A DNA stretch of 64,000 nt from Candidatus Saccharimonadota bacterium. GTDB lineage: Bacteria > Patescibacteriota > Saccharimonadia > Saccharimonadales > VXPC01. Location of the stretch: NCBI GenBank assembly GCA_026707815.1, contig JAPOWB010000008.1:62230-126229 (forward strand), read 5' to 3'. Positions 273-61,920 of this stretch are shown piece by piece. The translations under genes and the position numbers were made by a program. Every line of letters starts with the position of its first letter. Position 1 is the stretch's first letter. The notes under the pieces were generated by a model. That model did no database searches. It had not been told where the DNA came from and saw only the letters and a list, made by a program, of their open reading frames with translations.

Positions 273-480
273 ATCTTTCTTTGGTTAAGGGCATTATACC
301 AATAAGTGGGTATATTAGTCAATTATACTTTACCAATGAATAAGATTAAAAATCTATTATTGGAATTTTGATTCGATCCAAGCATTTGATAGCCCAGCTT
401 CTTTTCTATATCTCGCTCCGCCTGTAGATTTATAGAGTTATAGAGTTATAGATTAGTATGATGCTTATTCAGTGCATATG

Positions 481-507
481 AAACCCCCCCCCTAATGAAA
501 GGGGGTT
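481..507 (-). terminator. Rho-independent terminator downstream of pilin cassette 1
   Basis: Read on the minus strand there is a CCCCC/GGGGG(G4) hairpin followed by a T-run, immediately 3' of the pilin stop at 525. A homologous module follows pilin cassette 4 at 6600-6624. Confidence 0.55.
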
Positions 508-524
508 ATTAGGGTTAGAAGGGG

Positions 525-2509: not shown

Positions 2510-2533
2510 CAACGCCTAACAGAAAGTTAAGAA

Positions 2534-3253: not shown

Positions 3254-3286
3254 TCTCAATCAGCTGCATAGCTCCCATTGATTTAT

Positions 3287-4711: not shown

Positions 4712-4851
4712 CTTTGTTAATTTGTTAGAATATTTAATAAATCTAATTTCATACTATATTAGCTCATTCAATTTATCTAGTCAATCAATCCCTATCCAAT
4801 AGAGGAGTATCTTGTAAAATCTCGAATTTCTCGATTATTAATATCCAAATG

Positions 4852-4873
4852 CTAGGATTTAATTTAATCCTAG
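4852..4873. promoter_or_regulatory. Inverted repeat CTAGGATT-N6-AATCCTAG in the divergent intergenic region
   Basis: It has perfect 8-bp arms and sits between the divergently transcribed ATPase (minus) and dprA-like (plus) genes, so it is a candidate operator. Confidence 0.3.
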
Positions 4874-4904
4874 ACATATATTTTTATGTTAATATTTTAA
4901 TAGG

Positions 4905-5807
4905 ATGAATCATAAGCAGAGTTTTGCCATAAATCCACTAGAAGAGGCAATTGCTTACGAAGCTTATATTGCTCTTGAGAAAGATCGCTCTGAACAAAAA
5001 TTAGAACAGCAATTTCAGCTACATAATACTGATAACGAGTTAATTCAAATCCAGGCTAATCAACCTACCATCAGTCAGTTTCTAGATGAGCTACATATTA
5101 GTAGTGATTATCATAAACTAAAACAAGTGATTGCTAAAGAATTAAAGAAAGGAACTGGCTTCTCCATTTGCACCTTTATGAGTTATCACTATCCTCAAAA
5201 GTTGAGAGACAATAAATATCCTTTAAAGTTATTCTACTATCGGGGAGATATAAATCTATTAGATACAAGATGTGTTTCTATTGTTGGCAGCAGACAAGCT
5301 AGCGAAGCTGGTTTGAAAGACACTCAGCAAATCGCTCAATATTTAATAGAAAAGAACTATACGATTATTTCGGGTCTAGCCCAAGGCATAGATACAGTTG
5401 CTTTAACAACTGCTATAAAAACTCATGGGAGAATTATTGGTGTTATTGGCACTCCAATAGATCAATATTACCCCAAAGATAATAAAGATTTACAGGATGA
5501 AATTGGCAGACGACATTTACTCTTAAGCCATGTGCCTTTTTATAAGTATGATAAAGAGCCATTTTCGGCGAGGAGAAATTACTTTCCTCAGAGGAATATT
5601 ATTATGGCTAGCATTAGCCAAGCTACTATTATAGTCGAAGCATCAAATACTAGCGGGACTCTCCATCAAGCTAAAGCAGCCTTAGATCAAGGTCGGCAAT
5701 TATTTATTTTGGATAGATGTTTTAAAACCGCTACTTGGCCAGCTAGATTTGAAAGACAAGGAGCTATTAAAATAAATAATATTGATGACATCAAGGAAAA
5801 TTTCTGA
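4905..5807 (+). CDS. dprA: DprA/Smf-like DNA-processing (Rossmann-fold) protein
   Basis: It has the IVGSRQASEAG...ISGLAQGIDTVALTTAI...IGVIGTPID motifs typical of the DprA/Smf family. Confidence 0.6.
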   Translation: MNHKQSFAINPLEEAIAYEAYIALEKDRSEQKLEQQFQLHNTDNELIQIQANQPTISQFLDELHISSDYHKLKQVIAKELKKGTGFSICTFMSYHYPQKLRDNKYPLKLFYYRGDINLLDTRCVSIVGSRQASEAGLKDTQQIAQYLIEKNYTIISGLAQGIDTVALTTAIKTHGRIIGVIGTPIDQYYPKDNKDLQDEIGRRHLLLSHVPFYKYDKEPFSARRNYFPQRNIIMASISQATIIVEASNTSGTLHQAKAALDQGRQLFILDRCFKTATWPARFERQGAIKINNIDDIKENF

Positions 5808-5981
5808 TTATAAATGGCATCTGATTACAGATAAAGATAATATTAAACACATAACAGATACTGACTGCTTTGGAAAAATGAAGCATCAAATTCCTATGAT
5901 TGGTTTATTTTGGTCAAAAACCGTCCAAATGGAATAATTTACAATTCTTTTTGGGATTAATATATGTTTTGCCAAAAATAA

Positions 5982-6581
5982 GACCATAACCCCAAGATAT
6001 CAGGTTTCACCATTGTCGAGGTCATGATTGTCCTCGCTATTGCTGGGTTAATCTTGGCGGTGGTCTTTATTGCAGTGCCTGCACTAAACAGAAATCAGCG
6101 TAATAGTGCTAGAACAGCAGATAGAAACAATATCAGACAAGCTGTCCTGCAAGTTCAAGCTAATACTGGTGGACGAACAGCCGCCGACCACACCGTAGTT
6201 GGTGGGGCGTTAACAGGACTAGAAGTTGCTCACGTTGGAGATGGGAATGGTTCATATAACAACTCAATCGAAGTAGCTAATGTGAAAGCCTTCACAGTGG
6301 CAGCTCCGCAAATTGATGATGGTGAAATAGAATATATCAGGAGAACCTCTACTGTTACCACGCATACCACCACTGGTACTCCCGGTGATTTCCATTATAA
6401 TGGCTTAGTAATCATTGGGGATGCAAGATGTGCCAAAGATATAATTTCATCTGATGGAAAATTTCCCACTGCTGGTGCTAATATTGGTGGTGGTATTCAG
6501 GGAGCTGCCAATAGAGGCGATATAGTTGTTCTCTATAGGATAGAAGGTGATAATAATATTTATTGTGACGATAATGTCTAA
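5982..6581 (+). CDS. Type IV pilin-like protein, cassette 4. It is a complete pilin body with no start codon, so it is a putative silent cassette
   Basis: The frame opens right after a TAA: DHNPKIS|GFTIVEVMIVLAIAGLILAVVFIAVPALNRNQRNS. Homology to the other cassettes begins exactly at ATAACCCC (5986). There is no ATG/GTG/TTG or RBS upstream. The C-terminus is ...EGDNNIYCDDNV. Confidence 0.75.
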   Translation, partial: DHNPKISGFTIVEVMIVLAIAGLILAVVFIAVPALNRNQRNSARTADRNNIRQAVLQVQANTGGRTAADHTVVGGALTGLEVAHVGDGNGSYNNSIEVANVKAFTVAAPQIDDGEIEYIRRTSTVTTHTTTGTPGDFHYNGLVIIGDARCAKDIISSDGKFPTAGANIGGGIQGAANRGDIVVLYRIEGDNNIYCDDNV

Positions 6582-6599
6582 CCCCCCTCTAGCCCTAAT

Positions 6600-6624
6600 A
6601 ACCCCCTTTAATTAGGGGGTTTTG
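6600..6624 (+). terminator. Rho-independent terminator after cassette 4
   Basis: AACCCCCTTTAATTAGGGGGTTTTG. The 3' flank TAACCCC..CTCTA.CCCTAATAACCCCCTTT.ATTAGGGGG is shared with cassette 1. Confidence 0.6.
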
Positions 6625-6931
6625 TTTAAAAGAAATTATCATGTACCAAAATAAAATAGAAGAAATACACATCAAAAACATTATAGGAAACGTGCAAGTT
6701 GATCCAATTTCACAAGTAATTCTAACCAACCAATTCAACTTAGGCAGAAAGCTGGATCAATTGAGTAAAATGCTTGAACAAAAACTCAGCTAAACTCATT
6801 TTTGGAACTATTAAAATTATCTGTTTTATGGTATAATTATAGATATGAAAGAAGTTTATTTGTTGGTTTGCAAATTTTTAATGAAGTATTATAATTTAAT
6901 AAAGAGTACAATGGCGGGTGGGTGATTTAAA

Positions 6932-7435
6932 ATGCAAAAAGAACTTAAATCTCCCTATCAAGCTATGGATATAGCGGATTGGTTTATCGATCGAGCCAAT
7001 AAGGATTTGACAAATAACAATCCTAAATCAACCGAAAAAGAATATGCTGAATATATTAGCCATTTAAAATTGCAAAAATTACTTTATTTTACTCAAGCAG
7101 CTCACTTAGCTCTTTATGAAAGAGCATTGTTTAAAGACAAAATAGAGGCGTGGGATTATGGTCCTGTTATCCCCAGCGTATATCAACACTTCAAATCTCA
7201 GAGAAGTCGATTCATTAGAAATCCAAAAAGCCTCCAATATAAGAAAATTGATAAAGATGCCCAAGAGTTTTTAGAACAAATATGGCAAATATTTGGCAAA
7301 TTTTCAGCAAGTAAATTAGTGAATTTAACCCACAGTCATGAGCCTTGGAAATCTGCTTGTAAAAAAACAAACAGGATAATCACTCAGGATGCCTTAAAAG
7401 CTTACTACAAGAACATTTTTAGTTTCAAAGACTAA
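6932..7435 (+). CDS. Panacea-domain (DUF4065, SocA-like) protein, a putative antitoxin
   Basis: ADWFIDRA...KLQKLLYFTQAAHLALYERALFKDKIEAWDYGPVIPSVY matches the Panacea consensus (KLqKLLY...AW.yGPV.p.vY). Confidence 0.65.
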   Translation: MQKELKSPYQAMDIADWFIDRANKDLTNNNPKSTEKEYAEYISHLKLQKLLYFTQAAHLALYERALFKDKIEAWDYGPVIPSVYQHFKSQRSRFIRNPKSLQYKKIDKDAQEFLEQIWQIFGKFSASKLVNLTHSHEPWKSACKKTNRIITQDALKAYYKNIFSFKD

Positions 7436-8975: not shown

Positions 8976-10196
8976 ATGAATAGATATTCATTAATCTCTC
9001 GCTTAGCTCAGCAAGTAGTTCAAAATCACTTAAAAACAATGCCCGTAGCAGTCATTACAGGAGCTAGACAGACTGGCAAAAGTACTCTTGCCAAAGATTT
9101 AATTAGTCCCTCTCGGCAGTTTTATAGCTTAGATGATTTTGAGATTCTGAGCAATTTCTTGCAATACCCTAGGCAATTATTAAGTAGTGACCTACCAATT
9201 ACTATTGATGAAATACAATTAGCCCCCAGTTTATTAAAAGAGATTAAATTGGCGGTAGATCATCATCGCATCGAAGGGCAATTTTTACTGACTGGCTCAG
9301 CTAATCTGCTGCTAATGAAGGATATATCCGAATCATTGGCTGGTCGAGCCAGCTACATAACTTTATGGCCAACAACTCGGCGGGAGCGACTACAGGTAAA
9401 TCCCCCCAGTCTTTGGCAGGAATTATTGAGCTTAGCGGATAGAGATTGGCTGGCATTTTTTAAAAGCCAAAAATTATATCGGGATGATTGGCGAAAATTA
9501 GTTTTAAGAGGTGGTTTCCCAACCCCAGCTTGGCAGCTCAAAACAAACCCGCAATGTTCTATTTGGTTTGATAGCTATATTAAGACCTACTTGGAGCGTG
9601 ATCTTCGGAATATATCATCGATATCATCTTTACCTGATTTTCGTCGCATAATGCAAATTTTATGTCTGAGAATCGGACAATTATTAAATCAAGCAGAAAT
9701 ATCTAGAATAACTGGCATACCTCAACCAACAATTTGGAGATATATTAACTTATTGGAAATTTCCTATATGTTAATTCGCTTACCCGCTTATACATCCAAT
9801 AAGGGGAAAAGTCTATTAAAAACTCCTAAAATATATTGGGCGGATACGGGTTTAGGCTTGCATATTTCTAAGGGTCAAATCAATGGCTTTCATTTAGAAA
9901 ATTTAATCTTAACTGATTTCATGAGCTGGAATGATGCTTCAACTTTGAATGCAGAGATATTCCATTGGCGAACTACATCAGGTCAAGAAGTGGACTTTGT
10001 TATTGAATATAACGGTAATTTATTGCCAATGGAAATCAAAGCTTCAAATTTACCAACAGCTAAAGATATTAAAAATATTCATGTATTCCAAGAGATGTAT
10101 CCTCAGTCTAGATGCGGAATACTACTACACAGTGGTCAAACTTTAGAGTGGCTTAGTCCAAAAGTTTTAGCTTTGCCATGGTGGTATTTAATTTAA
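8976..10196 (+). CDS. AAA_14/DUF4143-family ATPase (shorter paralog type)
   Basis: It has ITGARQTGKSTL (Walker A) and TIDEIQLAPSLLKEIK...LLTGSANLL...SLAGRASYITLWPTTRRE. Confidence 0.7.
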   Translation: MNRYSLISRLAQQVVQNHLKTMPVAVITGARQTGKSTLAKDLISPSRQFYSLDDFEILSNFLQYPRQLLSSDLPITIDEIQLAPSLLKEIKLAVDHHRIEGQFLLTGSANLLLMKDISESLAGRASYITLWPTTRRERLQVNPPSLWQELLSLADRDWLAFFKSQKLYRDDWRKLVLRGGFPTPAWQLKTNPQCSIWFDSYIKTYLERDLRNISSISSLPDFRRIMQILCLRIGQLLNQAEISRITGIPQPTIWRYINLLEISYMLIRLPAYTSNKGKSLLKTPKIYWADTGLGLHISKGQINGFHLENLILTDFMSWNDASTLNAEIFHWRTTSGQEVDFVIEYNGNLLPMEIKASNLPTAKDIKNIHVFQEMYPQSRCGILLHSGQTLEWLSPKVLALPWWYLI

Positions 10197-10404: not shown

Positions 10405-10626
10405 TTGAGGCAGAATCTTGCTGATATTACTCAAGTTGTCGCTAATGACACAGATGTAATTATCACTTATAGAGGTGTTCAAAAACAGGTAATTATGAGT
10501 CTAGACAGATATGAAGATTTGCTAGCTTCATCGAATCCCAAGTATTTAGCAGATATTAAACAGGCTCGTCTTCAAACTAAATCTGGGCAATATTTAAAAT
10601 TTGATGAAGTCTTCGATAATTTGTAG
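10405..10626 (+). CDS. Phd/YefM-family antitoxin
   Basis: It is a 73-aa protein with LADITQVVANDTDVIITYRGVQKQVIMSLDRYEDL (Phd/YefM fold), and it lies immediately upstream of a RelE-like ORF. Confidence 0.6.
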   Translation: MRQNLADITQVVANDTDVIITYRGVQKQVIMSLDRYEDLLASSNPKYLADIKQARLQTKSGQYLKFDEVFDNL

Positions 10627-10890
10627 ATGGCAAAATATCAAGTCATTTTGATCAAGAATACTATTAAAAATTTGGAAAAATTGGATAGAATCATTCTTCA
10701 GCGTATCAAACAAAGATTAGAATATTTCAGAAAGAACAAACCTCTTAGCCAAGCGATTCAACTAACCAAACCAGCAGATGCCCAGTATAGTTGGCGGCTC
10801 GGAGATTATAGAATCTTATTTGATTACAGGAAATCAGATCAAACAATTATTATTTTAAAAATCCAGCACAGAAAAGAAATCTATCGCTAA
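10627..10890 (+). CDS. RelE/ParE-family toxin
   Basis: It is an 87-aa protein with ...WRLGDYRILFDYRKSDQTIIILKIQHRKEIYR (RelE/ParE C-terminal signature). Its start abuts the antitoxin stop. Confidence 0.65.
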   Translation: MAKYQVILIKNTIKNLEKLDRIILQRIKQRLEYFRKNKPLSQAIQLTKPADAQYSWRLGDYRILFDYRKSDQTIIILKIQHRKEIYR

Positions 10891-11106: not shown

Positions 11107-12555
11107 ATGGACAGCGAACTATATATTAGACAATATTTAAACCAACAACTAGAACATGGACATCAAGCCCTGAGCCTCAAGCTGATTGACTCGCAAAAAT
11201 CAAGACTACTAATCAGAAAACTCCAACGATATATTCAGCAATTTCTTGGTGGCGAAAAACAGGCTGATCGATGGGTTATTATCCCCGGTCTAAGGGGGGT
11301 GGGTAAAACCACCATATTAGCTCAAACTTACATTTGGCTGGAAGCAACGCATAATATTGAAGATATAAATTTAATCTATATTTCCTTGGATGAAATCATC
11401 CCGCAACTTAATTCTAATCTAAATCAGGTTATGCAAGTTTACGCTCAAGTATTGGGACACGATTGGATTAATTGTAAAAAACCCACCTTCGTCTTTATTG
11501 ATGAAGTTCAGCTTGATATCAATTGGGCGCAAACTTTGAAAGTGATATATGATAAAAACCCTAATCTATTTTTTATTTGCAGCGGCTCATCAGCTACATA
11601 TTTACAACTGAACGCTGATGTTGCGGGACGAAGAGCTATCATTGAAAGGCTTTATCCTTTGGCTTTTACTGAATATCAGTTATTAGCCTATGACAAAGAT
11701 AGCTCCCCTCATTTTAAAGATGAACTGATGACTATTCTTTATTATTCAGATTCAGCTGACATAGTTTTTAAAAAGCTAAAACAAAAACGACTGCTACTTG
11801 ATCGAGCTTGGGCAAAGTATGACAGTAATAATCTTGATCACTACTTAACAATGGGAACTATGCCTTTTGCTCTGCATCAAACTAATAGAGAGAAAACTTA
11901 CATAGCCTTAAGAGGTATGATTGATCAGGTAATTAATAATGATATACAGGCTGTTAAGAACTTTAATCAAGGTAGCCTAGCTGTCATCAGAAGATTGATG
12001 TTTTTATTAGCTGATTCCGGTGATGTTGTTAGCTTAGAAACATTGGGCAAGGTATTGGGGGTAGATAAAAAGCAAATTTGGGAAATGCTAGATACCTTAC
12101 TTAAAACTGAATTATTAATAAAAGTTAATGCTTATGGCAATCATTATACTGCAACCCGCAAACCAGCTCGCTATCATTTTATGAGTCCAGCTATCCGATT
12201 GACTTTAGCTAGCAGTATCAGTAATCGCAACCTGACGATAGCTAGAAGAGGACGATTATTGGAAGATATAGTCAGTTTGTATTATTATCAAAACTTTGCT
12301 ATTAATCATAAAGCTGATTTAACTTATCCTTACAGTGTTAATAACCAGAAAAACTGTGATTTCATTTTAAAGATACTCAATAGCCATAATATAGCTTTAG
12401 AATTTAGTCTTGGTAAAAAGGACATTAAACAATTGGTTGCCACCATGAAGACAATCGATTGTCGTTATGGGTTGATGTTTTCAGATTCTAATCTGAAACT
12501 GATCAAAGATCAGAATATTATTAAGATTCCCATACATTACTTCTTTTTGTCTTAG
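11107..12555 (+). CDS. AAA_14/DUF4143-family ATPase paralog
   Basis: It has IIPGLRGVGKTTILAQTY and FVFIDEVQLDINWAQTLK...CSGSSATYLQLNADVAGRRAIIERLYPLAFTEY. Confidence 0.7.
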   Translation: MDSELYIRQYLNQQLEHGHQALSLKLIDSQKSRLLIRKLQRYIQQFLGGEKQADRWVIIPGLRGVGKTTILAQTYIWLEATHNIEDINLIYISLDEIIPQLNSNLNQVMQVYAQVLGHDWINCKKPTFVFIDEVQLDINWAQTLKVIYDKNPNLFFICSGSSATYLQLNADVAGRRAIIERLYPLAFTEYQLLAYDKDSSPHFKDELMTILYYSDSADIVFKKLKQKRLLLDRAWAKYDSNNLDHYLTMGTMPFALHQTNREKTYIALRGMIDQVINNDIQAVKNFNQGSLAVIRRLMFLLADSGDVVSLETLGKVLGVDKKQIWEMLDTLLKTELLIKVNAYGNHYTATRKPARYHFMSPAIRLTLASSISNRNLTIARRGRLLEDIVSLYYYQNFAINHKADLTYPYSVNNQKNCDFILKILNSHNIALEFSLGKKDIKQLVATMKTIDCRYGLMFSDSNLKLIKDQNIIKIPIHYFFLS

Positions 12556-12559
12556 GATT

Positions 12560-12738
12560 TCATAACCCCAAGATATCCGGCTTCACCATTGTCAAGATCA
12601 TGATTGTTTTGGTGGTTGCTGGCTTGATCCTAGCGGTAGTCTTTATTGCTGTTACGGCTCTGCAGAGGAATCAGAGGAATGGTGCTAGGCAGAATGATGT
12701 GGCATATCTAAAAGCTCAATGTGACACTGTCTTTTAAT
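12560..12738 (+). pseudogene. Truncated type IV pilin cassette 5 (N-terminal ~57 codons only, no start codon, E+5 replaced by K)
   Basis: HNPKIS|GFTIVKIMIVLVVAGLILAVVFIAVTALQRNQRNGARQNDVAYLKAQCDTVF*. Homology starts at the same ATAACCCC boundary (12563). It lies 10 bp after the ATPase stop. Confidence 0.7.
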
Positions 12739-12873
12739 GCCATAAATTCGGAAGATCTTAATTAGTCTAATCAGGCTGCTGCTACCCCCCCCCCCTTTTT
12801 TTTAAAAAAAAATGGGAGGTTTTGATTTAAGAAAAAGAACTTAGAATCCCTAAGAGATATATCATATATACAC

Positions 12874-39538: not shown

Positions 39539-41071
39539 CTATATTAAAAAGAAATATTTTAAGGGAATACTAACAATGTTATCTGCCTCATGAAGTCGTA
39601 GTGGTGTCTTAGAAAAAACAAGCCCATAATCACACCTAATATTCTGCATTGTCTGCTTAACTTGATCAATATTTTTAACTCCCCAGCCGAATTCTAAAGC
39701 TACCTGATGATGATTATTGACTTGCAAAATAAAATCGCAATTGGGTTGGCGCTTCTTGATATAAGGATAAGTTAAAAAACCTTTCGATGTAATGACAAAT
39801 TCCTTGTAATAATGTAGAGTCGCCACATCTTCTAATAAATCTCCCTGCTTACTAGCAAGAGTCGCTGATTTACCAACTGGACTACGTAACACACTACGAC
39901 TAGAAGAACTCATAAACTGATAGCGAGCAGGAGCTTTAATATTATATAAACTACTGCCATAGGCTGGTATTTTAATTAGTAATTCTGCTTTAACTAAAGC
40001 ATCTAACATTGATGCAATCAATGGTCGACTCACGCCTAATGCATCGCTTAAAGTAGCCAGACTGGGGGTTTCTGTATTATCAGCTATGATTAACAACAAT
40101 CTTTTGATATTAATTATAGATTCATATCTAAAATTAAATCGAGTATCAGTCATCAAATCATTGACAATTATCTTTTCAAGAGTGTTGAGTAATTCTTTCT
40201 GAAACTCAAACTTATTATCATATTTTAAAGCAAAGGGCATAATATCTGATAAAATATACGGTTCTATATTATTTTCATCATATTGACTCCATGATCTAGC
40301 AATCTGAGGCTCCAATTTTTGTAAGGCTTGATAAACTTCTCTTGCTGATTGACAATAATAAAGGCTTTGAATGATTTGATTTTTCAAATCTTTAACTGGA
40401 TATAATTTATGAGCTATTGTCTGGTATTCAGTGAAACTTAAGGGATATAAACGTTCTATACATGCCCTACGACCAGCTGTATTAGCATCCATCTGCAAAT
40501 AAGTAGCTGATGAACCAGTGCAAATCATAAATAATTGGGGTGTCCGATCATAAACAGTCTTAAGAAATTGAGACCAATTTCTGTCTGTTTGGACTTCATC
40601 AATAAACATAAAAATCGGCTGTTTAGCTTTATATAATTCGCAACCCAATATTTGTTCATAGACTTCTATAACATCACTTAAATTAGCCTTAAAATTATTA
40701 ATAATATCTAAAGAGATATAGATAATATTAAATTGTTCAGAATCTTTCTTATGTTGCACAAATTGAGAATACAGTTTAGTATAAATTTGTCCAATTAAAG
40801 TTGTTTTGCCAACACCCCTTAAACCCGGAACGACTATCCAGCGGGGTTTCCTATTATCAGCAATAAAATCCTTAACATATTTATCTAGTCTTATTTCCAT
40901 ATTTCTAGATACATACTGGCTTTGATTGATTTCATTAACAAGATGATTATCGCCAATCTGACGCAATAAATAAGCCTCTAGAAGATCTTTTTTATAATTC
41001 ATAATTATTTCTAGTAAAGGTAATTTTACTAAGAATATTATTTTAAAGCAAATTAATTTTACTAATAACAC
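39539..41071 (-). CDS. AAA_14/DUF4143-family ATPase paralog
   Basis: It has IVVPGLRGVGKTTLIGQIY and FMFIDEVQTDRNWSQFLK...CTGSSATYLQMDANTAGRRACIERLYPLSFTEY. Confidence 0.7.
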   Translation of the reverse strand: MLLVKLICFKIIFLVKLPLLEIIMNYKKDLLEAYLLRQIGDNHLVNEINQSQYVSRNMEIRLDKYVKDFIADNRKPRWIVVPGLRGVGKTTLIGQIYTKLYSQFVQHKKDSEQFNIIYISLDIINNFKANLSDVIEVYEQILGCELYKAKQPIFMFIDEVQTDRNWSQFLKTVYDRTPQLFMICTGSSATYLQMDANTAGRRACIERLYPLSFTEYQTIAHKLYPVKDLKNQIIQSLYYCQSAREVYQALQKLEPQIARSWSQYDENNIEPYILSDIMPFALKYDNKFEFQKELLNTLEKIIVNDLMTDTRFNFRYESIINIKRLLLIIADNTETPSLATLSDALGVSRPLIASMLDALVKAELLIKIPAYGSSLYNIKAPARYQFMSSSSRSVLRSPVGKSATLASKQGDLLEDVATLHYYKEFVITSKGFLTYPYIKKRQPNCDFILQVNNHHQVALEFGWGVKNIDQVKQTMQNIRCDYGLVFSKTPLRLHEADNIVSIPLKYFFLI

Positions 41072-52948: not shown

Positions 52949-54166
52949 TCAACCTGCCCCAAAGCTCGGATTATCTTGTATCAAAGAATAAACTGGTAGT
53001 AAAATAGCTAAAACAATAACTATAGCTATGCCGCCGACAGTTAAGATTAGAACTGGCTCCATAGTTGTTGTCAAAGCTTTGATTTGCTTATCGACTTCTT
53101 TTTCATAATAAACAGCTGCCTTTAAAAGCATTTCTTCAGTCCGACCAGATTGTTCACCGATACTAATCATACTGGGAACTAAATCTAGAAATAATGGCTC
53201 ATTCTCTAAAGATGAAGATAGACTTTTGCCCTCTCTAACTAAGCTGGAACTTCGGTTGATAGCAGCTTCTAGATGCATATTATTAATTCCCTTAGCTATG
53301 ATAGCTAGGGTTTCCAATAAATTAACCCCCGAAGCGAATAAAGTTCCAACCGTTCTAGTAAATCGAGCCATATAAACTTTCGACATTAAACTTTTAACAG
53401 CTGGAAATTTTAATTTGCTATGATCAGCAAAACTCTTGCCTTTGGGGGTTTTTAAAGCTCTATTAAGAGCTATCACTGCACCTAAAGCGACCAAGATATA
53501 AACGTAATAATAATCAACCAAAGAATCAGAAACAGCAATTAAAACTCTGGTAATCCAAGGTAGAGGCTTGTCAAATTGTTCATAAAAAACAACTACTTGA
53601 GGTAGGACGAAAATTAACATAAAAGAAACTACTCCAATAATGACAAAAACGACAATAATCGGATAAATTAAAGCCCCTTTGATTTTACTGACTAGATCAC
53701 CATCTTTTTCCTGTTGAATGGCAAGTCTTTCTAGAGAGGTATCTAAAGTTCCAGAAGCCTCGCCTGCTTTAACTAAATTAATATAAATCTGATCAAAATA
53801 TTTAGGATACTCAGCTAAAGCATCAGAAAACGCCGATCCTGATTCGATACTACTAACAATATCATCAATAATTCTCTTCAAATTCTTATTTTTCATCTGC
53901 AAAGATGTCTGTTGCAAGCTTTGAAGCAAAGGTAAACCGGCTGAAATTAAAGTTGACAATTGATTTGTGAAGAGAATTTTATCCCGACGTTTAATACGAC
54001 CCGTTAAACCTCCCAGCAAATTAGCTCGCTTTTGTTTGGCTTGAATGGGCTGTAAACCCCGTTCTAAAACTAAATTGGTCGCCTCATTTTGATTGTTGGC
54101 ACTAATATTGACTGAAACCTGTTTACCGGTACTAGGATCAATAGTTTTATAAATATAATCAGGCAT
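52949..54166 (-). CDS. pilC: Type IV pilus assembly platform protein PilC (GspF family)
   Basis: It has two T2SSF repeats and three TM segments; it is 405 aa. Confidence 0.8.
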   Translation of the reverse strand: MPDYIYKTIDPSTGKQVSVNISANNQNEATNLVLERGLQPIQAKQKRANLLGGLTGRIKRRDKILFTNQLSTLISAGLPLLQSLQQTSLQMKNKNLKRIIDDIVSSIESGSAFSDALAEYPKYFDQIYINLVKAGEASGTLDTSLERLAIQQEKDGDLVSKIKGALIYPIIVVFVIIGVVSFMLIFVLPQVVVFYEQFDKPLPWITRVLIAVSDSLVDYYYVYILVALGAVIALNRALKTPKGKSFADHSKLKFPAVKSLMSKVYMARFTRTVGTLFASGVNLLETLAIIAKGINNMHLEAAINRSSSLVREGKSLSSSLENEPLFLDLVPSMISIGEQSGRTEEMLLKAAVYYEKEVDKQIKALTTTMEPVLILTVGGIAIVIVLAILLPVYSLIQDNPSFGAG

Positions 54167-54169
54167 ATT

Positions 54170-55234
54170 TTACATTCCTTGGGTTAAATTCTTGAAAGCT
54201 GAAGGATTGCGAGCTACTTTCAAGCCATTGTCATAAGTTATAATGCCAGCCTGAACCATTTTTGCTAAAGTTTGATCCATGCCCTGCATGCCAAGAGCGG
54301 CATTGCCCTGAATAATAGAATCAATCTGATGAATTTTGGATTCTCGAATCAAGTTGCTAACAGCTGAATCAACGATTAAGATTTCTGTTGCTACCGATCT
54401 TGTCCCCTCAATATTGGGGACTAAGTATTGGGCGCAAGTAGCTTTTAAGGTATTACTCAATTGAATACGAATCTGAGCTTGTTGGTGAGGTGGAAAAACA
54501 TCAATGATACGATTGATGGTCTGAGGAGCTGAATTAGTATGCAGAGTTCCAAAAACCAAATGTCCTGTTTCAGCGATTGTCAATGCTGCTGAGATAGTTT
54601 CTAAATCTCTTAACTCACCAACTAAAACTATATCCGGATCTTGTCTTAATGCTGATCTTAAAGCTGCCGCAAATGAATAAGTATCATAATGGACTTCTCT
54701 TTGAACAACAATCGACCTTTTAGAGGAATGAACAAATTCAATAGGATCTTCAATGGTAATAATTCGTTCCTTACGTTCTTCGTTGATTTTATGAATTAAA
54801 GCTGCCATTGATGATGACTTACCAGAACCAGTCGGACCAGTGAATAAAACCAAGCCCTGCTTATATTGGGCAAATGTACTGACAACCGCTGGCAAACCCA
54901 AATCATCCAAACTGGGAATCCGACTGGGAATTAATCTCAAAGAAGCGGCTAAATTCCCTTTTTCGTGAAAAACATTGACTCGAAATCTACCTAACTCCCC
55001 AAAAGAAAAACCACAGTCTACTTCTTTATTCTTTAATAAAATACTCTTTTGCTCATCGTCTAAAATGGCAAAGATTAAACTCTCTATATCCGCAGGAGTT
55101 AGAGGTTTTTGGGCAATAATTTCTATTAGCTCACCTTGTTGGCGAACCATTGGCAAAGTCCCAACCTGCAGATGTAAATCAGACGCACCTAAATTAACAA
55201 CCTCCTGCAGTAATACTTCAATTCTCAAATCCAT
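54170..55234 (-). CDS. pilT: Type IV pilus retraction ATPase PilT
   Basis: LVLFTGPTGSGKSSSMAAL...ITIEDPIEF...GHLVFGTLHTNSA; it is 354 aa. Confidence 0.85.
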   Translation of the reverse strand: MDLRIEVLLQEVVNLGASDLHLQVGTLPMVRQQGELIEIIAQKPLTPADIESLIFAILDDEQKSILLKNKEVDCGFSFGELGRFRVNVFHEKGNLAASLRLIPSRIPSLDDLGLPAVVSTFAQYKQGLVLFTGPTGSGKSSSMAALIHKINEERKERIITIEDPIEFVHSSKRSIVVQREVHYDTYSFAAALRSALRQDPDIVLVGELRDLETISAALTIAETGHLVFGTLHTNSAPQTINRIIDVFPPHQQAQIRIQLSNTLKATCAQYLVPNIEGTRSVATEILIVDSAVSNLIRESKIHQIDSIIQGNAALGMQGMDQTLAKMVQAGIITYDNGLKVARNPSAFKNLTQGM

Positions 55235-55299: not shown

Positions 55300-57141
55300 T
55301 TACACGCTATTATGAGAGATTACTCTATCAACTTCAGAAATTGTTGTTAAACCAGCTAAAGCTTTCAAGTAGCCGTCTTGACGCATAGTGATCATACCTT
55401 CCTTCTGAGCTATTTCTTGAATTGCACTACTGGGAGCTCTTTTAATGATTAAATCTTGAATAGCTTCAGTCACAGCAAAAGCCTCATAAATACCTACTCG
55501 ACCCTTGTAGCCATTATTAGCATCATGTCGATCAATACCTCTATATAGAGTATAAGCATTATCATCTATGGATGGCAAAGTATTATAACCGAGTAATTTG
55601 TGCAGAGCTGTCAATTCCTCACCCGACACATTCTTAGAAGCTAAAACTCCCGATAAAGTCTGTTTAATACTTTCAGTTTCAATGGGATTGGATTGATATT
55701 CTTCTTGCTCATCAGTATTTTTACGAAGCAACCTCTGCCCAATAACAACTCGAATAGTGGAGGCAATTAAAAATGGCTCAATACCCATATCTAAAAGCCT
55801 AGGCAAGATTCCAGCCACCGAATTAGTGTGCAAGGTGCTAAAGACCAAATGTCCCGTCAAAGAAGCTTGAATAGCTAGTTGAGCAGTTTCAGCGTCACGA
55901 ATCTCACCAACCATAATCACATCAGGGTCTTGTCGCAAAATTGATTTTAAACCACTGGCGAAAGTTAATCCAATGCTAGGATTGACTTGAATTTGATTAA
56001 CTCCAGCTAATTTATATTCAGCTGGATCTTCTAAGGTGATAATCTTAACTGAATCACTCAAGATTTCTTGCAATAAAGTATAAAGAGAGGTCGTCTTACC
56101 CGAACCAGTTGGACCAGAAGTTAAAATCATGCCTGAGGATTGTTTGAGAGCTTCTCTAATAACCTGTAAACTTTTACCACAATAACCCAAATTCTCTAAT
56201 CTGCCTGACATAACACCAGTACGATCCAGAATTCTCATAATAACCTGTTCGCCCCAAACAGTTGGAGAGACAGCTACACGCAAATCAATATTTTTACCAT
56301 TAACATTAATGACAAATTCACCATCTTGAGGCAATCTTTTTTCATCAACTTTCAGCTGAGCACAAATTTTAACCCTAGCTATTAAGCCCGCCTCTAAGGC
56401 TTTAGGGAATTTAGTGATTGGAACTAAAACTCCGTCTATTCTTATTCTGACTCTAACATCAAACTCTTGAGATTCAATATGTATATCAGATGCTTTAGCG
56501 CCAACTGCATATTGCAAAATATTCGTCAGAGCTTTTGAGGCTGGGGATTCCTCAGCCATAGTTTCAGATACTTCAATCTCATTTTTTGTTCGCTTCAGAG
56601 GACTAAGAAAAGAAGGTTTGGGTTGATTCTGTTTAGCTTTTAATTTCTGGGCATCTCTTTCAGAATTCTCCAGTTTTTTGATTATTTCTTGAGTTTTAAT
56701 CTTAACTTCATATTGCCCCAAAACATTGCGAATACTAGTCTTTGAAGCTAAATGAATATCTAAATCTCTGCCTAAAAGTTTGGTCAAAAAATCAACTTTT
56801 TGAATATCGCCAGCTTCATACATGGCCACCAATAATTTGCCATTTGATTCGCCCACAGCTACTGCTTGATACTCCTTGGCAAGCTTTTCAGAAATTAAGT
56901 CCAAAGTTTTAGGATGGATTTCAGTGCTAGTCAAATTGACATAGGGTAAATTACTAGTTTGGGCGACTATACGAGTCAATGCTTCTTCGTCGACAAGTTT
57001 CTGTTTAATCAAGTAATCAAAGATATCTGTGCCAGCAGATTTGCTTTGATTTAGAGCTTTCTTGATTTGAGTAGCTGACAGCAGATTATCTGATTTGAGA
57101 GTGTCTAATATCTGATCTTTTTTCTGAGAGAGTAACCTCAT
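55300..57141 (-). CDS. pilB: Type IV pilus assembly ATPase PilB (GspE family)
   Basis: It has an N-terminal GspE_N domain, ILTSGPTGSGKTTSLY, ITLEDPAEY and GHLVFSTLHTNS; it is 613 aa. Confidence 0.85.
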   Translation of the reverse strand: MRLLSQKKDQILDTLKSDNLLSATQIKKALNQSKSAGTDIFDYLIKQKLVDEEALTRIVAQTSNLPYVNLTSTEIHPKTLDLISEKLAKEYQAVAVGESNGKLLVAMYEAGDIQKVDFLTKLLGRDLDIHLASKTSIRNVLGQYEVKIKTQEIIKKLENSERDAQKLKAKQNQPKPSFLSPLKRTKNEIEVSETMAEESPASKALTNILQYAVGAKASDIHIESQEFDVRVRIRIDGVLVPITKFPKALEAGLIARVKICAQLKVDEKRLPQDGEFVINVNGKNIDLRVAVSPTVWGEQVIMRILDRTGVMSGRLENLGYCGKSLQVIREALKQSSGMILTSGPTGSGKTTSLYTLLQEILSDSVKIITLEDPAEYKLAGVNQIQVNPSIGLTFASGLKSILRQDPDVIMVGEIRDAETAQLAIQASLTGHLVFSTLHTNSVAGILPRLLDMGIEPFLIASTIRVVIGQRLLRKNTDEQEEYQSNPIETESIKQTLSGVLASKNVSGEELTALHKLLGYNTLPSIDDNAYTLYRGIDRHDANNGYKGRVGIYEAFAVTEAIQDLIIKRAPSSAIQEIAQKEGMITMRQDGYLKALAGLTTISEVDRVISHNSV

Positions 57142-57657
57142 AAATTTCTTGGATAATATTTATGTTTGTTTTGAATAAATTAATACCCTAATTATACTGA
57201 ATTACCCCTAAATTAGCTGTTGTGTTTTGAGGGAATTATGTAGCAGAAGGAATTTACAGAGGGTAATTTATCGTATTTACAATTACATTACATCGGATTT
57301 TAAGGATAAAGTATGACTAAAAAGAAAGAGCCTTTAAAACTAGTTAGCCAAGTTGATGGTAAGCCTTTTATTGAGATTGATTTAGAAAGCAATGTAGCTG
57401 TCTTAAAAGCTCCTCAAATTGAGGCTACTACTTTATATGGGGTTGAGAGGATTTAGAGCTTTTTATAAGCAAGTTGCCAAGTGAGTTAACTGCCATCAAA
57501 AAGATTTTAGATGTCTATAAAGCCGAATGGCTGAAAAAAGCCTTATAAAACAAATTAGATTTTGCAACATCAAGCCTATCCCCAATATTTTTAAGATAAT
57601 TCAGTAGCCAATCAAAAAGCTCCTTTAATAAGGAGCTTTATTGATGCCTATCTAATC

Positions 57658-58800
57658 CTAGTTATTGGTATATTCGTAGCTATAAATCTTCCAAATACCC
57701 GAAGCATAGGCTGGATAATCACTAGTACCATCAGCATAAGTATTACAACCTCCTTTGGATATGGCTATTTCTGTAGTTTGCTTCCTAGCATTATTATAGT
57801 TGTACTTCTTATTGGGGTGGTGTTCATGGACAATTGAGCCAGCTTTAATAGTGATATTTGAGCTGTGCGGGGCAACACTACTTACATCGCCTTGTTGCGT
57901 CATACCAACATAGCAACGGTAAACAACTGGAGCAGGGGGAGTAGATAAACCATCTAGACAAACTTTAACTGGCATATCTTTCATACCATCTTTAATATTG
58001 GGGTATTTAAAAGCACACACTGTGGCTGTATTTGTTGGCATTTGTACTTTACTCCAATCAGCTATACCAGTCTCCTTGTTAATTACAGGATAATTGATGT
58101 TAGCAAGAACTGATCCGTTGCTATCTAAAGCCATTAAATCAAATTGCAAACCTGCAGGTCTTATCCTTTTCTCACTGATTAACCAACCATTTTTATGTAT
58201 AAAAGTACCACCACCGAATAAATCACCTGTATATTTGTTAGCTACTCTGCGCTTTTTACCAAAAGGCACACAAATCCATCGCCTCATTTTGTCATCTTGG
58301 TGATGATGTTTAGAGGTGAGACCAAAATAAACTTCTGCGAAAGTTCCGTTGTAGGGGTTGTCTACTACGCCATCACCATCGGGGTCAGGAACATAAGTGG
58401 CAGATTGTCCATTCTGATACCAAATCTGCCTACTTATTATTGGTTTCGTAGTATCACCATCTCTGTGTACATTAACAACATTAGCGATTTTATGGTAGGT
58501 ATGACAATCACCACCACTTTTATCATGGTTTTTTACATAGACTACTGATTTTGTTTGGGCTTGTATATTAATTTCACATTCAATGTTATTGTCTCTATCA
58601 GGGAGGCAAACTAATTTTGTAAGCTGTCTATTTCTGTGCAGAAATACTTGGGTTTGTTCTACGCCTGTTTTAGTTTGAGCTTTAGCTTGATGACTAAATA
58701 AGAGAACTGCTACTAAGAAAGCCAATAATAAGATAGCAGATAAAACTAGATAAACTAGTTGGGGGGGGGTATTTTTTAAAAAATTGTAAGGCTTAAACAT
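57658..58800 (-). CDS. Hypothetical exported or membrane-anchored protein inside the pilus operon. It carries a C9 tract at codons 10-13
   Basis: The N-terminal TM helix is LVYLVLSAILLLAFLVAVLLF. G9 on the plus strand at 58761-58769 is C9 in the coding strand (codons ACC CCC CCC CAA). Confidence 0.4.
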   Translation of the reverse strand: MFKPYNFLKNTPPQLVYLVLSAILLLAFLVAVLLFSHQAKAQTKTGVEQTQVFLHRNRQLTKLVCLPDRDNNIECEINIQAQTKSVVYVKNHDKSGGDCHTYHKIANVVNVHRDGDTTKPIISRQIWYQNGQSATYVPDPDGDGVVDNPYNGTFAEVYFGLTSKHHHQDDKMRRWICVPFGKKRRVANKYTGDLFGGGTFIHKNGWLISEKRIRPAGLQFDLMALDSNGSVLANINYPVINKETGIADWSKVQMPTNTATVCAFKYPNIKDGMKDMPVKVCLDGLSTPPAPVVYRCYVGMTQQGDVSSVAPHSSNITIKAGSIVHEHHPNKKYNYNNARKQTTEIAISKGGCNTYADGTSDYPAYASGIWKIYSYEYTNN

Positions 58801-58935
58801 AATTATTATTCTTTCAAAGATTGTTATTTATTGCTTTTATAATATCACATGATGGGAAACTGGCTTTAGCCCCATCTGCTACATAATTCCCTGTTTTGAG
58901 AATATATACCCAGAGTTGAGATTTTGTGAAATAAA

Positions 58936-59172
58936 TTATTGATTGCCTGGAATGCGAGTGGTTTCAAAATAATCCAAAGACTGATGATTGAAATATTTTT
59001 CATCTAATTGAAAGGCATTCTCTAAATCATGACCCCCAATATCTGTAACTGTTTGATAAGTTTCAGTTTTATTAGAATCAATTCCATCAACAAATAAATG
59101 GACTAAAAGAAAGCTAACAATAATAGCCCCCAAAGCGACCCCCATAGCTGATAGCCAATATTTCTGTGACAT
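58936..59172 (-). CDS. Small membrane protein
   Basis: It is 78 aa with one TM helix. Confidence 0.3.
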   Translation of the reverse strand: MSQKYWLSAMGVALGAIIVSFLLVHLFVDGIDSNKTETYQTVTDIGGHDLENAFQLDEKYFNHQSLDYFETTRIPGNQ

Positions 59173-59247: not shown

Positions 59248-59991
59248 CTAGGGATTTGGAACATTTTGAGGGATACTTTGCTCTGAAGTAATGGAAATTG
59301 GTATTTTTGGCTTGATATAGGTTTCTAAATTTAGACTAATACTGAGGCAACTATCAGAAGCATCCTCAGCGTTAGCACTGGTCGAACCTTTAAAATCTAC
59401 AGTAATCTCGGTAATCCTCATAGGTCTGATTAATTTATCTAAATCAGCAAAAAATTCTTCAAAAGTTTTACATTTAGACGACCCTCCTTCATTTAATTTT
59501 AAATTAGTAACCGTCATGGTCATATCAGAAATTGGAATAACTCCTGCTGGCAAATCTGTTCTATCAGCAGTGGCTGTATCTAAACTGATAGAATCGGGAA
59601 TTTCCACATTGCCAATATATTGTTCCTCTTTTAAGAAATTATCTAGACTTAGGCGAAAAGTTAAAGCATCATATTCTGTGGGCAAAGCTCTGAGGATTAA
59701 AACCTCATTAGTCACATCAGATTGATTGGGATGCGTGACAATTGCCCCATCTCGAAAATCTTTAAAATTCTGAACCAAAGTTTCAATGCTTTGTTTATGT
59801 TGCTGAGCTTGGTTGAGATTCTGCTGCTTTTGCAAAATTACAACCTGCTGATATTCTCGACGATCTAAATATTTTTTGGTAGTAAATAAAGTTATACAAA
59901 TTAAGGCAACTAGAACGGCTAAAATAATCAACGTAATATGATGATTGTGACTAATCTTAGTTTGTTTGGTTTGGAATGAAGTAGTTGCCAT
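59248..59991 (-). CDS. PilO-like bitopic membrane protein (tentative)
   Basis: It has an N-terminal TM helix and a coiled-coil segment, and it lies downstream of pilN. Confidence 0.3.
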   Translation of the reverse strand: MATTSFQTKQTKISHNHHITLIILAVLVALICITLFTTKKYLDRREYQQVVILQKQQNLNQAQQHKQSIETLVQNFKDFRDGAIVTHPNQSDVTNEVLILRALPTEYDALTFRLSLDNFLKEEQYIGNVEIPDSISLDTATADRTDLPAGVIPISDMTMTVTNLKLNEGGSSKCKTFEEFFADLDKLIRPMRITEITVDFKGSTSANAEDASDSCLSISLNLETYIKPKIPISITSEQSIPQNVPNP

Positions 59992-59996
59992 ATCCT

Positions 59997-60881
59997 TTAT
60001 TCCTCAGCTGGAGCTTCTATTCTTCTACTTTGACAGTTGTGTGTCGGTTTGGCATCAAAATCATCGGAAGATATAATTTCGGGAGTTACTAATGTGAGAT
60101 TGTCGAAATATTCATCTAAGTTTTTCAGAGCATGGTTATAATCCGGATGATGTTTATAGGCTGATGGAGATTCCTGACCGATCTGCGAATATTTCAAAGC
60201 TAGACTTTCAAATAATTTCGGTTCAAACCTGCCAGTAATACTGTAGTTTAAAGCTTGAGCTTCATCATCTGAAGTACTGGTATTAGCCCTGAGATTTGGA
60301 AAACTGGTTAGAGTAATTGGATATTCGCGATATTCTCTATTTTCTAAAGTACAACCCTCTTTGAGTCCAATATATAAAAGACTATCTCTCAATTGTATAC
60401 CTTCGCTCAAACTGTGCGTTTGACCACTAATACTGAAAGTTCCTTCCAAGAAATTGAAATTAATCTGTTCATATGTCCCCAAATCTTTAGAGATTAAAGA
60501 ATCTAAATAGTGTAACCGATGGAAGCTGAATAAACGCTCCACTTCGGGTTTGAGTTTATGTAAATCTCCTAAAGCTTCCAGTTGACTTCGAACAGTTAAG
60601 ATTTTGTCAAAACCTAAAGCTGGTTTATCATCATCGACTTCAACCTCAACTTCAATAACTCCAGCTGCTAAGTCATTGATTGACTTAATAACTTTAGTGG
60701 TGGTTTGATCTAATTCTTCTATTTTTGAAGGGTGGCTAATGTTGACCTGATAATAAAGCCAGCTGAAGAGACCGAGGCAAATCGGAGTGACGATAATTAA
60801 TAAACCAGTTAAAAATCTCCTGAATTTTTGGATGCGAACGAATTCTATTTTGATTTTGGGCAATAAATTGACAAAGATCAT
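59997..60881 (-). CDS. pilN: PilN-like protein
   Basis: It has an N-terminal VNLLPKIK motif (the PilN INLLP signature) followed by a TM helix. Confidence 0.5.
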   Translation of the reverse strand: MIFVNLLPKIKIEFVRIQKFRRFLTGLLIIVTPICLGLFSWLYYQVNISHPSKIEELDQTTTKVIKSINDLAAGVIEVEVEVDDDKPALGFDKILTVRSQLEALGDLHKLKPEVERLFSFHRLHYLDSLISKDLGTYEQINFNFLEGTFSISGQTHSLSEGIQLRDSLLYIGLKEGCTLENREYREYPITLTSFPNLRANTSTSDDEAQALNYSITGRFEPKLFESLALKYSQIGQESPSAYKHHPDYNHALKNLDEYFDNLTLVTPEIISSDDFDAKPTHNCQSRRIEAPAEE

Positions 60882-60885
60882 CTCT

Positions 60886-61920
60886 CTAAATTACCTGCCT
60901 TTCAGCTAAGCCCGTTGCCACAGCAAAATTGACTGACAAATCCCTTAATTCTTCTCTCATTCGAGGTGGATAAACAATATTCTGCCAAGAATTGCCAATT
61001 TCAACAGGCAGATTGATCGCCGAAGCAAGATACTCAATAAATCCAGGAACATAAACGATATCGCCCCAAAGAGTAATTTTTTCTAAATTATGATGAGTAT
61101 AACGATTAATAAAATAATCTGTGGCTTTATTAAGATTGATGATTAATAATTCTAAACTTTTAATAATTCTTGAATGAAGCTCAGGCTGACTCTTCTGATC
61201 TCTGAGACCGACTTGGAAAATTAATTGCTGGTTCTGAATTTGATCGCCATGCAGGGTATTTTCTACGGCTCGCATAATAGAAGCTAAACCAATTGGAATA
61301 GCCGATATCAATCTAGGTTGATTATGTACACTAATAACTATATCTGTATGACGAAAACCAACATCAACCAGTAAGCTAGCTTGAGAAGTGTTATTGGCAA
61401 TAGCTCTATTTAAAGCCAACCCATCCGGTTCAAAAGCTAAAACATTCAATTTAATACTCTCAAGCATCTCTAATCTAGCCTGAGCGTATTGGCTATTAAC
61501 CGAACAGATGAAAACACTTTTCTTTTTAGTTGGTGTCTTAGTCTGTTTATCTAAAACATCCCAAGCAATTTGTGAATCATCTCCTTGGGGTACAATGGTA
61601 TTAGCTTGAAATTTCAACATTTTTTTCAAATTTGAAGCTGAATTGACTTCAAATTCTTGAACAGTTGAATAAATCTTGTTATTAGGTAAGCCGACTACAA
61701 CATTTCCAGTGCTAATCTGAAAAGTTCTTAAAGTTTCTCGTATTTTCTGAGCTAGACGACGTAAACTTGCATCATCATTTTTATCAGAAAGATAATGTTC
61801 AATCGGCATCTTACCATACCTAAAGAGAGCTTTAGGATGTTGTTTACCTTTGAGTTGGACAACTCGTATAGCTGTTGTGCCGATATCTAAACCAAAAAAG
61901 TCTGAAAACCCACCTAGCAT
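60886..61920 (-). CDS. pilM: Type IV pilus assembly protein PilM (actin-like ATPase)
   Basis: FFGLDIGTTAIRVVQL...VVGLP... matches the actin-like fold; it is 344 aa. Confidence 0.7.
   Translation of the reverse strand: MLGGFSDFFGLDIGTTAIRVVQLKGKQHPKALFRYGKMPIEHYLSDKNDDASLRRLAQKIRETLRTFQISTGNVVVGLPNNKIYSTVQEFEVNSASNLKKMLKFQANTIVPQGDDSQIAWDVLDKQTKTPTKKKSVFICSVNSQYAQARLEMLESIKLNVLAFEPDGLALNRAIANNTSQASLLVDVGFRHTDIVISVHNQPRLISAIPIGLASIMRAVENTLHGDQIQNQQLIFQVGLRDQKSQPELHSRIIKSLELLIINLNKATDYFINRYTHHNLEKITLWGDIVYVPGFIEYLASAINLPVEIGNSWQNIVYPPRMREELRDLSVNFAVATGLAERQVI

Follow-up and report, generated by a model that had tools for sequence, protein, structure and literature searches.

The DNA analysed here is a stretch of 64,000 nucleotides (nt) from a Candidatus Saccharibacteria bacterium metagenome-assembled genome (MAG; assembly GCA_026707815.1, contig JAPOWB010000008.1, positions 62,230 to 126,229), referred to below as the window. 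Its minus strand carries a set of type IV pilus genes, among which lies an open reading frame (ORF) of 380 codons, ORF380, with a run of nine cytosines (C9) near its 5' end; this tract, its gene and the gene's relatives are the subject of what follows. An earlier interpretation made from the letters of the window (the sequence-only reading) had placed the ORF at 57658-58800 between pilMNO-like genes and pilB, and this gene order was borne out, the minus strand reading pilM, a PilN-like ORF, a PilO-like ORF, an ORF of 78 amino acids (aa) with a transmembrane segment, a 135-nt spacer, ORF380, a terminator hairpin, a 517-nt spacer, pilB, pilT and pilC. The features are as follows.

58761..58769, minus strand: C9 homopolymer, the proposed slipped-strand switch, assessed by sequence, chance expectation, frame simulation and strain comparison.
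57658..58800, minus strand: ORF380 coding sequence, 380 aa, ATG start, MCY4088997.1, OXF49_02650.
58678..58800, minus strand: putative N-terminal export-signal region, from sequence, with n-region MFKPYNFLKNTPPQ (holding the tract), h-region LVYLVLSAILLLAFLVAVLLF, AxA motif AKA and a conserved QTKTGV.
58720..58722, minus strand: internal TTG (codon 27, mid-helix), called as a start in C10 assemblies (P0010/P0012; L044/L045 sequence).
58901..58930, minus strand: promoter-like TTCACA-18-TATATT in the 135-nt spacer upstream of ORF380 (10/12 matches; weak evidence).
57614..57639, minus strand: intrinsic-terminator hairpin AAAGCUCCUU-AUUA-AAGGAGCUUU followed by UU, 19 nt past the ORF380 stop, setting ORF380 apart from pilB.
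60886-61920, minus strand: pilM (PilM_2, E = 6e-19).
59997-60881, minus strand: PilN-like ORF, 294 aa, by synteny (tblastn) with other Saccharibacteria.
59248-59991, minus strand: PilO-like ORF, 247 aa, by synteny (tblastn) with other Saccharibacteria.
58936-59172, minus strand: 78-aa transmembrane ORF, upstream of ORF380 and co-directional with it.
55300-57141, minus strand: pilB, downstream.
54170-55234, minus strand: pilT, downstream.
52949-54166, minus strand: pilC, downstream.

The ORF380 protein is identical to MCY4088997.1 (OXF49_02650), and its gene begins ATG TTT AAG CCT TAC AAT TTT TTA AAA AAT ACC CCC CCC CAA CTA GTT TAT. The tract, G9 on the plus strand at 58761-58769, extends from the second base of codon 11 to the first base of codon 14, with ACC CCC CCC CAA encoding T-P-P-Q; the sequence-only reading had identified the tract correctly and put it one codon too early, at codons 10-13, a trivial offset. 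Directly 3' of the tract lies the codon series for a 21-residue hydrophobic segment, LVYLVLSAILLLAFLVAVLLF, followed by AKA|QTKTG. At the window's 35% G+C content, 0.007-0.03 runs of at least nine G or C are expected (for independent, identically distributed bases or a first-order Markov chain), and three were found (C9 at 484, C11 at 12785 and G9 at 58761), alongside none of 7-8 nt and eight of 6 nt. The tract is thus longer than chance gives. An incidental Pro-Pro coding run of no regulatory meaning would be compatible with the tolerance of signal-peptide n-regions for many sequences and with TPPQ being unremarkable as protein, but it would leave unexplained both this rarity and the use of CCC for both Pro codons, between ACC and CAA, a choice that maximises the run; the difference in tract length between strains, C9 as against C10 (below), largely refutes it, and we attach very little probability to this account.

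Simulated changes of tract length had sharply different consequences depending on frame. Full-length protein with one to three Pro was obtained for C6, C9 and C12 (380 aa for C9), translation stopped after 34-35 codons for C7 and C10 (35 for C10), and after 14-15 codons for C8 and C11 (14 for C8). These early stops in C8 and C10 agree with the earlier claim that gain or loss of one C would shift the frame ahead of the N-terminal hydrophobic segment. In the shifted states no ATG, GTG or TTG occurs in the body frame upstream of that segment, and the first body-frame start that could be used is the TTG of codon 27, which lies midway along it. Slippage of transcription on the C run, or +1/-1 frameshifting there, could in principle blunt such effects, leaving all alleles partly ON with tract length tuning the amount of product. 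Long homopolymers can indeed cause RNA polymerase to slip, mostly on A/T runs of at least 9 nt; slippage on C runs is less documented, and no evidence supporting such rescue at the RNA or ribosome level was found, although no search for a stimulatory structure was made. We regard it as highly improbable.

Tract length was compared among consensus assemblies, five including the window, and it was found to vary. C9 is present in the window, in L001 (ENA, SAMN13943208) and in L046 (GCA_026706615.1), and C10 in L044 (ENA, SAMEA7723695) and L045 (GCA_026708245.1). The four contigs share 97.8-99.4% nucleotide identity with the window across the locus, and the C9 and C10 assemblies therefore represent one species, so that tract length, far from being invariant, differs between conspecific assemblies. 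The 90% cluster of the ORF380 protein has six members; P0010 (MAG OXF30) and P0012 begin with MAFLVAVLLFSHQAKAQ ('MAFLVAVLLF...'), exactly at the internal TTG, and their contigs carry C10. The C10 allele is otherwise intact, with 0 stops in 353 codons and a ratio of nonsynonymous to synonymous polymorphism (pN/pS) of 0.51 (window versus L044). These data support the phase-variation reading at the between-strain level: the switch postulated by the sequence-only reading stands in that the two lengths, the loss of frame and the intact OFF allele occur among strains, as does the repeat variation in paralogues described below, and its scope is the comparison of assemblies rather than switching within a clone.

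Homopolymers are error-prone, and the difference between C9 and C10 might be a consensus error of sequencing or assembly, all the more as L044 and L045 show no difference in 3410 bp (100% identity) and might stem from related data. Against such an artefact, three assemblies agree on C9 and two on C10, each length being found both in NCBI MAGs and in ENA re-assemblies, and the dinucleotide repeats of the paralogues differ between assemblies by 1-7 units, exceeding consensus noise. An artefact is therefore improbable in our estimate.

ORF380 belongs to a very small family. Five clusters were returned when 5.8 billion proteins were searched by word index, and an exhaustive HMMER profile search across 1.84 billion representatives contributed one further member besides two weak relatives of high G+C content (P0007 and P0008). 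Nothing was added by a second word-index search with the 11-sequence alignment, no relatives were detected when the GTDB representative genomes were scanned with the family alignment, and scans of JGI metagenomes, made with the family alignment and with an exact pattern of 28 nt spanning the tract, likewise yielded nothing. Within the window no paralogue of ORF380 was found (tblastn). The window's MAG encodes two further family members, OXF49_00110 and OXF49_01935, giving at least three copies per genome, and in other strains the paralogues adjoin rsmH and gatCAB.

Four codons from the position equivalent to the poly-C tract, the paralogues carry an (AT)n repeat, with signal peptides that align at the protein level. 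Homologues thus do lack the homopolymer, an outcome that the sequence-only reading had counted against a switch, but they possess in its place a variable repeat of 3-11 AT units occurring in all three frame states. In L002 the sequence is ...AAC TTA ATA TAT GTA GTC..., encoding L-I-Y-V-V-L, that is, (AT)3, and in other paralogues ATA TAT is expanded to (AT)n with n = 4, 5, 9, 9, 10 and 11. Two start codons in different frames precede the repeat: F0, [A/G]TGCTTCATT, directly after a TGGTATAAT box, and F1, ATGATAAAAAC, 10 nt further on. The frame states are distributed as follows.

F0 in frame: L003, (AT)5; L005, (AT)11; L048 and L049, (AT)9 plus 1 nt.
F1 in frame: L002, (AT)3; L047, (AT)4; L004, (AT)10.
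Neither F0 nor F1 in frame (OFF): L050, (AT)9, whose gene call P0006 begins at M76.

At the rsmH locus the three states are represented by three strains, with (AT)9 OFF (L050), (AT)10 in F1 (L004) and, judging from the N-terminus of P0014, probably (AT)11 read from F0; the L004 and L050 loci are 94.7% identical. A conserved module, TTGTAACTAGTTTTAACAACGCCATCATACAATGATTATGGTATAAT, containing the extended -10-like TGGTATAAT, lies about 50 nt upstream in L003, L004, L005, L047, L048 and L050, with the F0 start following at once and F1 10 nt later in another frame. This arrangement suggests that the mRNAs of the (AT)n paralogues may be leaderless or near-leaderless and that the repeat may act as a three-state switch between F0, F1 and neither.

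No DNA similarity was detected between the 5' ends of the paralogues and that of the window gene (blastn), similarity beginning at the AQTKTG codons. Since the 5' modules are not detectably homologous at the DNA level, the two simple-sequence repeats (SSRs) arose independently, and for two independent repeat types lying four codons apart in homologous signal peptides there is hardly an explanation other than selection for mutability. The window contains no dinucleotide repeat of at least 5 units, and in 38 other Patescibacteria pil loci (~0.5 Mb) there was no dinucleotide repeat of at least 6 units and no G/C run of at least 8 nt except one at a contig end. These results also bear on one-way pseudogenisation, in which the tract would be mutable, C10 would be a dead gene in one strain and the tract would not be selected as a switch. 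Only two states were seen, each fixed in its assembly, and the gene is accessory, being absent from other Saccharibacteria pil loci, with paralogues that could compensate for its loss, all of which such a decay would accommodate. Yet the 353 codons of the C10 allele hold no further lesion despite ~6% divergence and its pN/pS value, a second independent SSR of 3-11 units sits four codons away in the paralogues in all three frames, and the absence of long G/C and AT repeats elsewhere from AT-rich sequence argues for maintained tracts. We therefore consider pseudogenisation unlikely, though less so than an artefact, and favour a maintained contingency switch.

The gene that carries the tract is itself hypervariable. 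Between the window and L044, a Nei-Gojobori count gives ORF380 63 codon-path differences in 1056 sites (~6%), while the remainder of the 5-kb alignment contains ~22 mismatches (~0.6%); the gene is thus more than 10 times as divergent as its flanks. A codon-level sliding comparison resolved this divergence into mosaic blocks. L001 (pil locus) and L003 (gatCAB locus), which come from the same sample, have 100% nucleotide identity in alignment columns 101-190 and ~50% in the flanking columns, and over its C-terminal ~90 residues the window gene has 84-100% nucleotide identity to L004 and L005, with N-terminal halves that are not related in detail. Overall the window and L001 agree at 99.2%, and what sets them apart is a single patch of ~25 codons, where the window matches L002 and L001 agrees with L003. 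Similarly, L003 and L005 at the gatCAB locus have flanks that are 99.1% identical and gene bodies that are largely different. This is the pattern that segmental gene conversion among paralogues would be expected to leave, and the family copies seen are all complete genes. An exchange that crosses loci may be captured in L047 (ena:ERZ27276918:k141_90063, 1-7195), where the upstream flank of the gatCAB locus with an (AT)4 module (92% to L048) is joined within the gene to a pil-locus gene body plus pilB-pilT-pilC (98.4% to the window); the join could have arisen by recombination between the paralogous loci, or as a chimera that the assembly built across an identical block.

Hypervariability of the type produced by diversity-generating retroelements was considered and set aside, the replacement being block-wise at ~50% identity and not by adenine-specific substitutions, a judgement made on pattern only, with no search for a reverse transcriptase. 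The window allele further differs by one extra Gln at codons 302-303 (region 57781-57786; MTQQGD versus MTQGD, 380 versus 379 aa), an in-frame indel that L001, L046 and the paralogues lack, in a block that is otherwise identical.

The protein encoded by ORF380 has a putative export signal at its N-terminus. Signal cleavage probably takes place at AKA|Q, residues A39, A41 and Q42-V47 being invariant in a six-sequence alignment, and conservation in the family covers the AxA|QTKTGV junction, the motifs SGG(D/N)CH and ICxPFGK(K/T)RR, and the cysteines C99, C262 and C281, with C177 kept in 10/11 sequences. We infer an exported, disulfide-bonded surface or secreted protein. The structure prediction of the 380-aa product called for by the sequence-only reading was run: with 11 sequences, AlphaFold2 returned a model with an N-terminal helix at 13-39 and then a mostly beta body, at a mean predicted local distance difference test (pLDDT) score of 65.6, and with six sequences an unusable one (pLDDT 42). 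A Foldseek search of the model against PDB gave no match at E <=0.001 (TM score ~0.1), and the sequence had no Pfam family at E <=0.1, no NCBIfam match and no PDB sequence match. The earlier statement that the gene has no recognisable homology is accordingly right for Pfam, NCBIfam and the sequences and folds in PDB, and wrong in that a small family of paralogues and orthologues exists.

Two possible identities were rejected. ORF380 does not resemble a type IV (minor) pilin, as its N-terminus, MFKPYNFLKNTPPQLVYLVL..., is without G-F-T-x-x-E, while the window's true pilins read ...G|FTIVEVMIVLAIAG. Nor does it resemble a PilC/PilY1 tip adhesin, having no match to the C-terminal beta-propeller domain and a length of 380 aa against ~1000 aa.

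The relation of ORF380 to the pilus genes around it is one of position. In 11/11 other Saccharibacteria pil loci pilB comes directly after pilM-N-O, across a gap of a few hundred bp and with no ORF380 homologue (tblastn), which makes ORF380 a lineage-specific insertion between pilMNO and pilBTC. A role as a core pilus component of the PilMNOP type was rejected for its absence at this position in those 11 loci and for the presence of its paralogues at rsmH and gatCAB. The hairpin behind ORF380 is strong (-19 kcal/mol, z = -4.76, 0/200 shuffles as stable), and L004 has a homologous hairpin after its paralogue; the number of promoter-like sites around ORF380 was not above shuffle expectation. Of the earlier description of ORF380 as a gene of the pilus machinery operon, the position holds and a place in the core pilus machinery does not, given its absence from the 11 loci, its non-pilus paralogues and its own terminator, and at the level of sequence its link to the pilus appears to be positional only. 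Among GTDB representative genomes, the PilB proteins most similar to that of the window come from Saccharimonadales MAGs, at only 50-55% identity. The 517-nt spacer to pilB holds an antisense ORF of 47 aa (57300-57460, plus strand), also called in L001, L046 and L047 and replaced by a 38-aa antisense call in the L044 spacer, which may be the remnant of an inserted element.

Combining these results, we propose that the C9 tract is a simple-sequence contingency switch in the export-signal 5' end of a gene for a hypervariable secreted or surface protein, a reading that we hold to be probable. Slipped-strand mispairing during replication would add or remove a C. With nine C's (or six, or 12), the ATG at 58800 would read through to the 380-aa protein, and with eight or 10 translation would stop after 14 or 35 codons, such that the protein would be absent or, at most, present in an export-defective form from the internal TTG. 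Paralogues would meanwhile exchange sequence blocks, and with a separate repeat in each paralogue, each cell lineage could therefore display a different subset of the family in different versions. Length changes would presumably be frequent and reversible within a population, the protein exported and surface-exposed, and the variation of use in interaction with host cells or in evasion of phage or host defences.

Several points weigh against this reading. Only two length states were seen, between consensus assemblies and not within a clone; C10 may rest on a single strain because L044 and L045 agree over their shared 3410 bp; and some residual chance of consensus error attaches to G/C homopolymers of 9-10 nt. 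Some of the mosaic alleles, L047 for example, may owe their structure to chimeric assembly across blocks of identical sequence. Either F0 or F1 may be the true ON state of the (AT)n paralogues, depending on where their transcription starts. The structural model of ORF380 is of only moderate confidence, and the Pfam, NCBIfam, PDB sequence and fold searches for a function of the protein were all empty. Mismatch-repair families had no match among the ten largest unassigned ORFs of the 64-kb window, a result that speaks for those ORFs and not for the whole genome.

The proposed arrangement recalls several known systems, and ORF380 belongs to none of their protein families. Neisseria pilC1 and pilC2 reportedly carry a poly-G tract in the region encoding the signal peptide; as in ORF380, a G/C homopolymer lies in the first few dozen nt of the coding sequence, in the export-signal region, one base toggles translation, there is a link with type IV pili, and two or more paralogues switch independently. 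The differences are that ORF380 has no homology to pilC, lacks a PilC/PilY1 domain, is far shorter than those ~1000-aa proteins, is linked to the pilus by position and belongs to a monoderm, ultra-small Saccharibacterium. The likeness to Neisseria pilC drawn by the sequence-only reading is thus one of mechanism and not of homology. Campylobacter jejuni is said to possess poly-G/C contingency genes, and Helicobacter pylori likewise; there, as here, G/C homopolymers are far over-represented in an AT-rich genome, stand in the 5' part of the coding sequence of surface-structure genes and differ in length between close strains. Most of the genes concerned there encode glycosyltransferases or modification enzymes from known families, whereas here the product is an orphan secreted protein and there are only three tracts in 64 kb, of which only one is in a coding sequence.

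For the repeat-bearing family as a whole, a parallel is Neisseria opa, a multi-copy surface family in which each copy is toggled independently by a leader-coding repeat, (CTCTT)n, although dual out-of-frame starts such as F0 and F1 are not a known opa feature. The (TA)n of Haemophilus influenzae hifA/B is likewise an AT dinucleotide repeat, controlling an adhesive organelle; it changes promoter spacing, whereas (AT)n lies inside the coding sequence, downstream of a -10-like box. Mosaic alleles are also known from antigenic variation by segmental gene conversion, in Neisseria pilE/pilS, Mycoplasma genitalium MgPa/MgPar and Treponema tprK, and are matched here by blocks 100% identical to a copy from the same sample beside ~50% blocks, in a gene whose divergence exceeds that of its flanks more than tenfold. 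Unlike the promoterless donor cassettes of those systems, every copy seen here is a full-length gene that has a 5' module and a terminator of its own.

Elsewhere in the window, five type IV pilin copies were observed, at 525-1172 (minus strand), 6024-6581 (plus), 12600-12737 (plus), 1880-2509 (plus) and 2534-3253 (plus). The last two are complete with leaders (MNISK...NPKISG|FTIVEV and MKKINSKG|FTIVEV). The first three share the 5' DNA CATAACCCCAAGATATC(A/C)GG(C/T)TTCACC..., encoding NPKISGFTIVEVMIV; ahead of their G|F cleavage site there is no ATG, GTG or TTG, and one of them is truncated to 45 aa. By analogy with pilS, these start-less and perhaps silent cassettes could serve as recombination donors. 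The window's other two long G/C runs (C9 at 484-492 and C11 at 12785), together with a C6 at 6582-6587, lie just 3' of such cassettes: the C9 is 33 nt past the stop of 525-1172 and reads G9 on that gene's strand, the C6 directly follows the stop of 6024-6581, and the C11 forms part of an odd C11-T8-A9 triple homopolymer (12785-12812) that lies 48 nt past the stop of the fragment at 12600-12737. The strand orientation of these homopolymers relative to the cassettes is inconsistent. Paralogous AAA_14-type ATPase genes occur at 3287-4711 (minus), 8976-10196 (plus), 11107-12555 (plus) and 39539-41071 (minus), the last assigned by Pfam scan and the other three by similar sequence (for example, 3287-4711 versus 11107-12555), and a small toxin-antitoxin-like gene pair (10405-10890, plus) lies among the pilin cassettes. 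The interspersion of ATPases and toxin-antitoxin-like pair with pilin cassettes suggests a variable, island-like region.

ON/OFF combinations would differ among the three genomes compared: OXF49 with the pil copy in frame, OXF85 with the pil copy in frame and the rsmH copy OFF, and OXF30 with the pil copy OFF and the gatCAB copy in frame. The mechanism itself is a textbook one, and what is new is the lineage and the protein family. More tentatively, and with the balance tilting slightly to the other side, these loci may represent the first multi-gene contingency system in Patescibacteria, the candidate phyla radiation (CPR), consisting of at least three orphan exported paralogues, each switched independently by its own SSR (poly-C in the pil copy, (AT)n with dual starts in the others) and all reshuffled by segmental gene conversion. 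Among the papers on Patescibacteria, CPR and Saccharibacteria listed by full-text searches, no mention of slipped-strand, homopolymeric-tract or contingency-locus variation was found, and a recent detailed study of Saccharibacteria type IV pili does not mention phase variation.

Patescibacteria are obligate episymbionts with tiny genomes, and the ways in which they recognise, exchange or retain their host cells are still to be explained. In cultivated Saccharibacteria, host binding is known to be driven by type IV pili (PMC12206443). If this more tentative reading of a multi-gene system is true, the system, together with the start-less pilin cassettes, would mean that an ultra-small episymbiont uses stochastic surface variation to alter its attachment specificity for host cells or to escape from phage or host defences. 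Because the tracts make gene callers mis-start or split genes (P0006, P0010, P0012), such loci are easily taken for pseudogenes in MAGs; with one poly-C and several (AT)n loci, population heterogeneity would be measurable in existing metagenomic reads. A stochastic ON/OFF switch on a hypervariable exported family inserted in the main pilus locus would, if real, imply that even reduced genomes bet-hedge at their surface like host-adapted pathogens.

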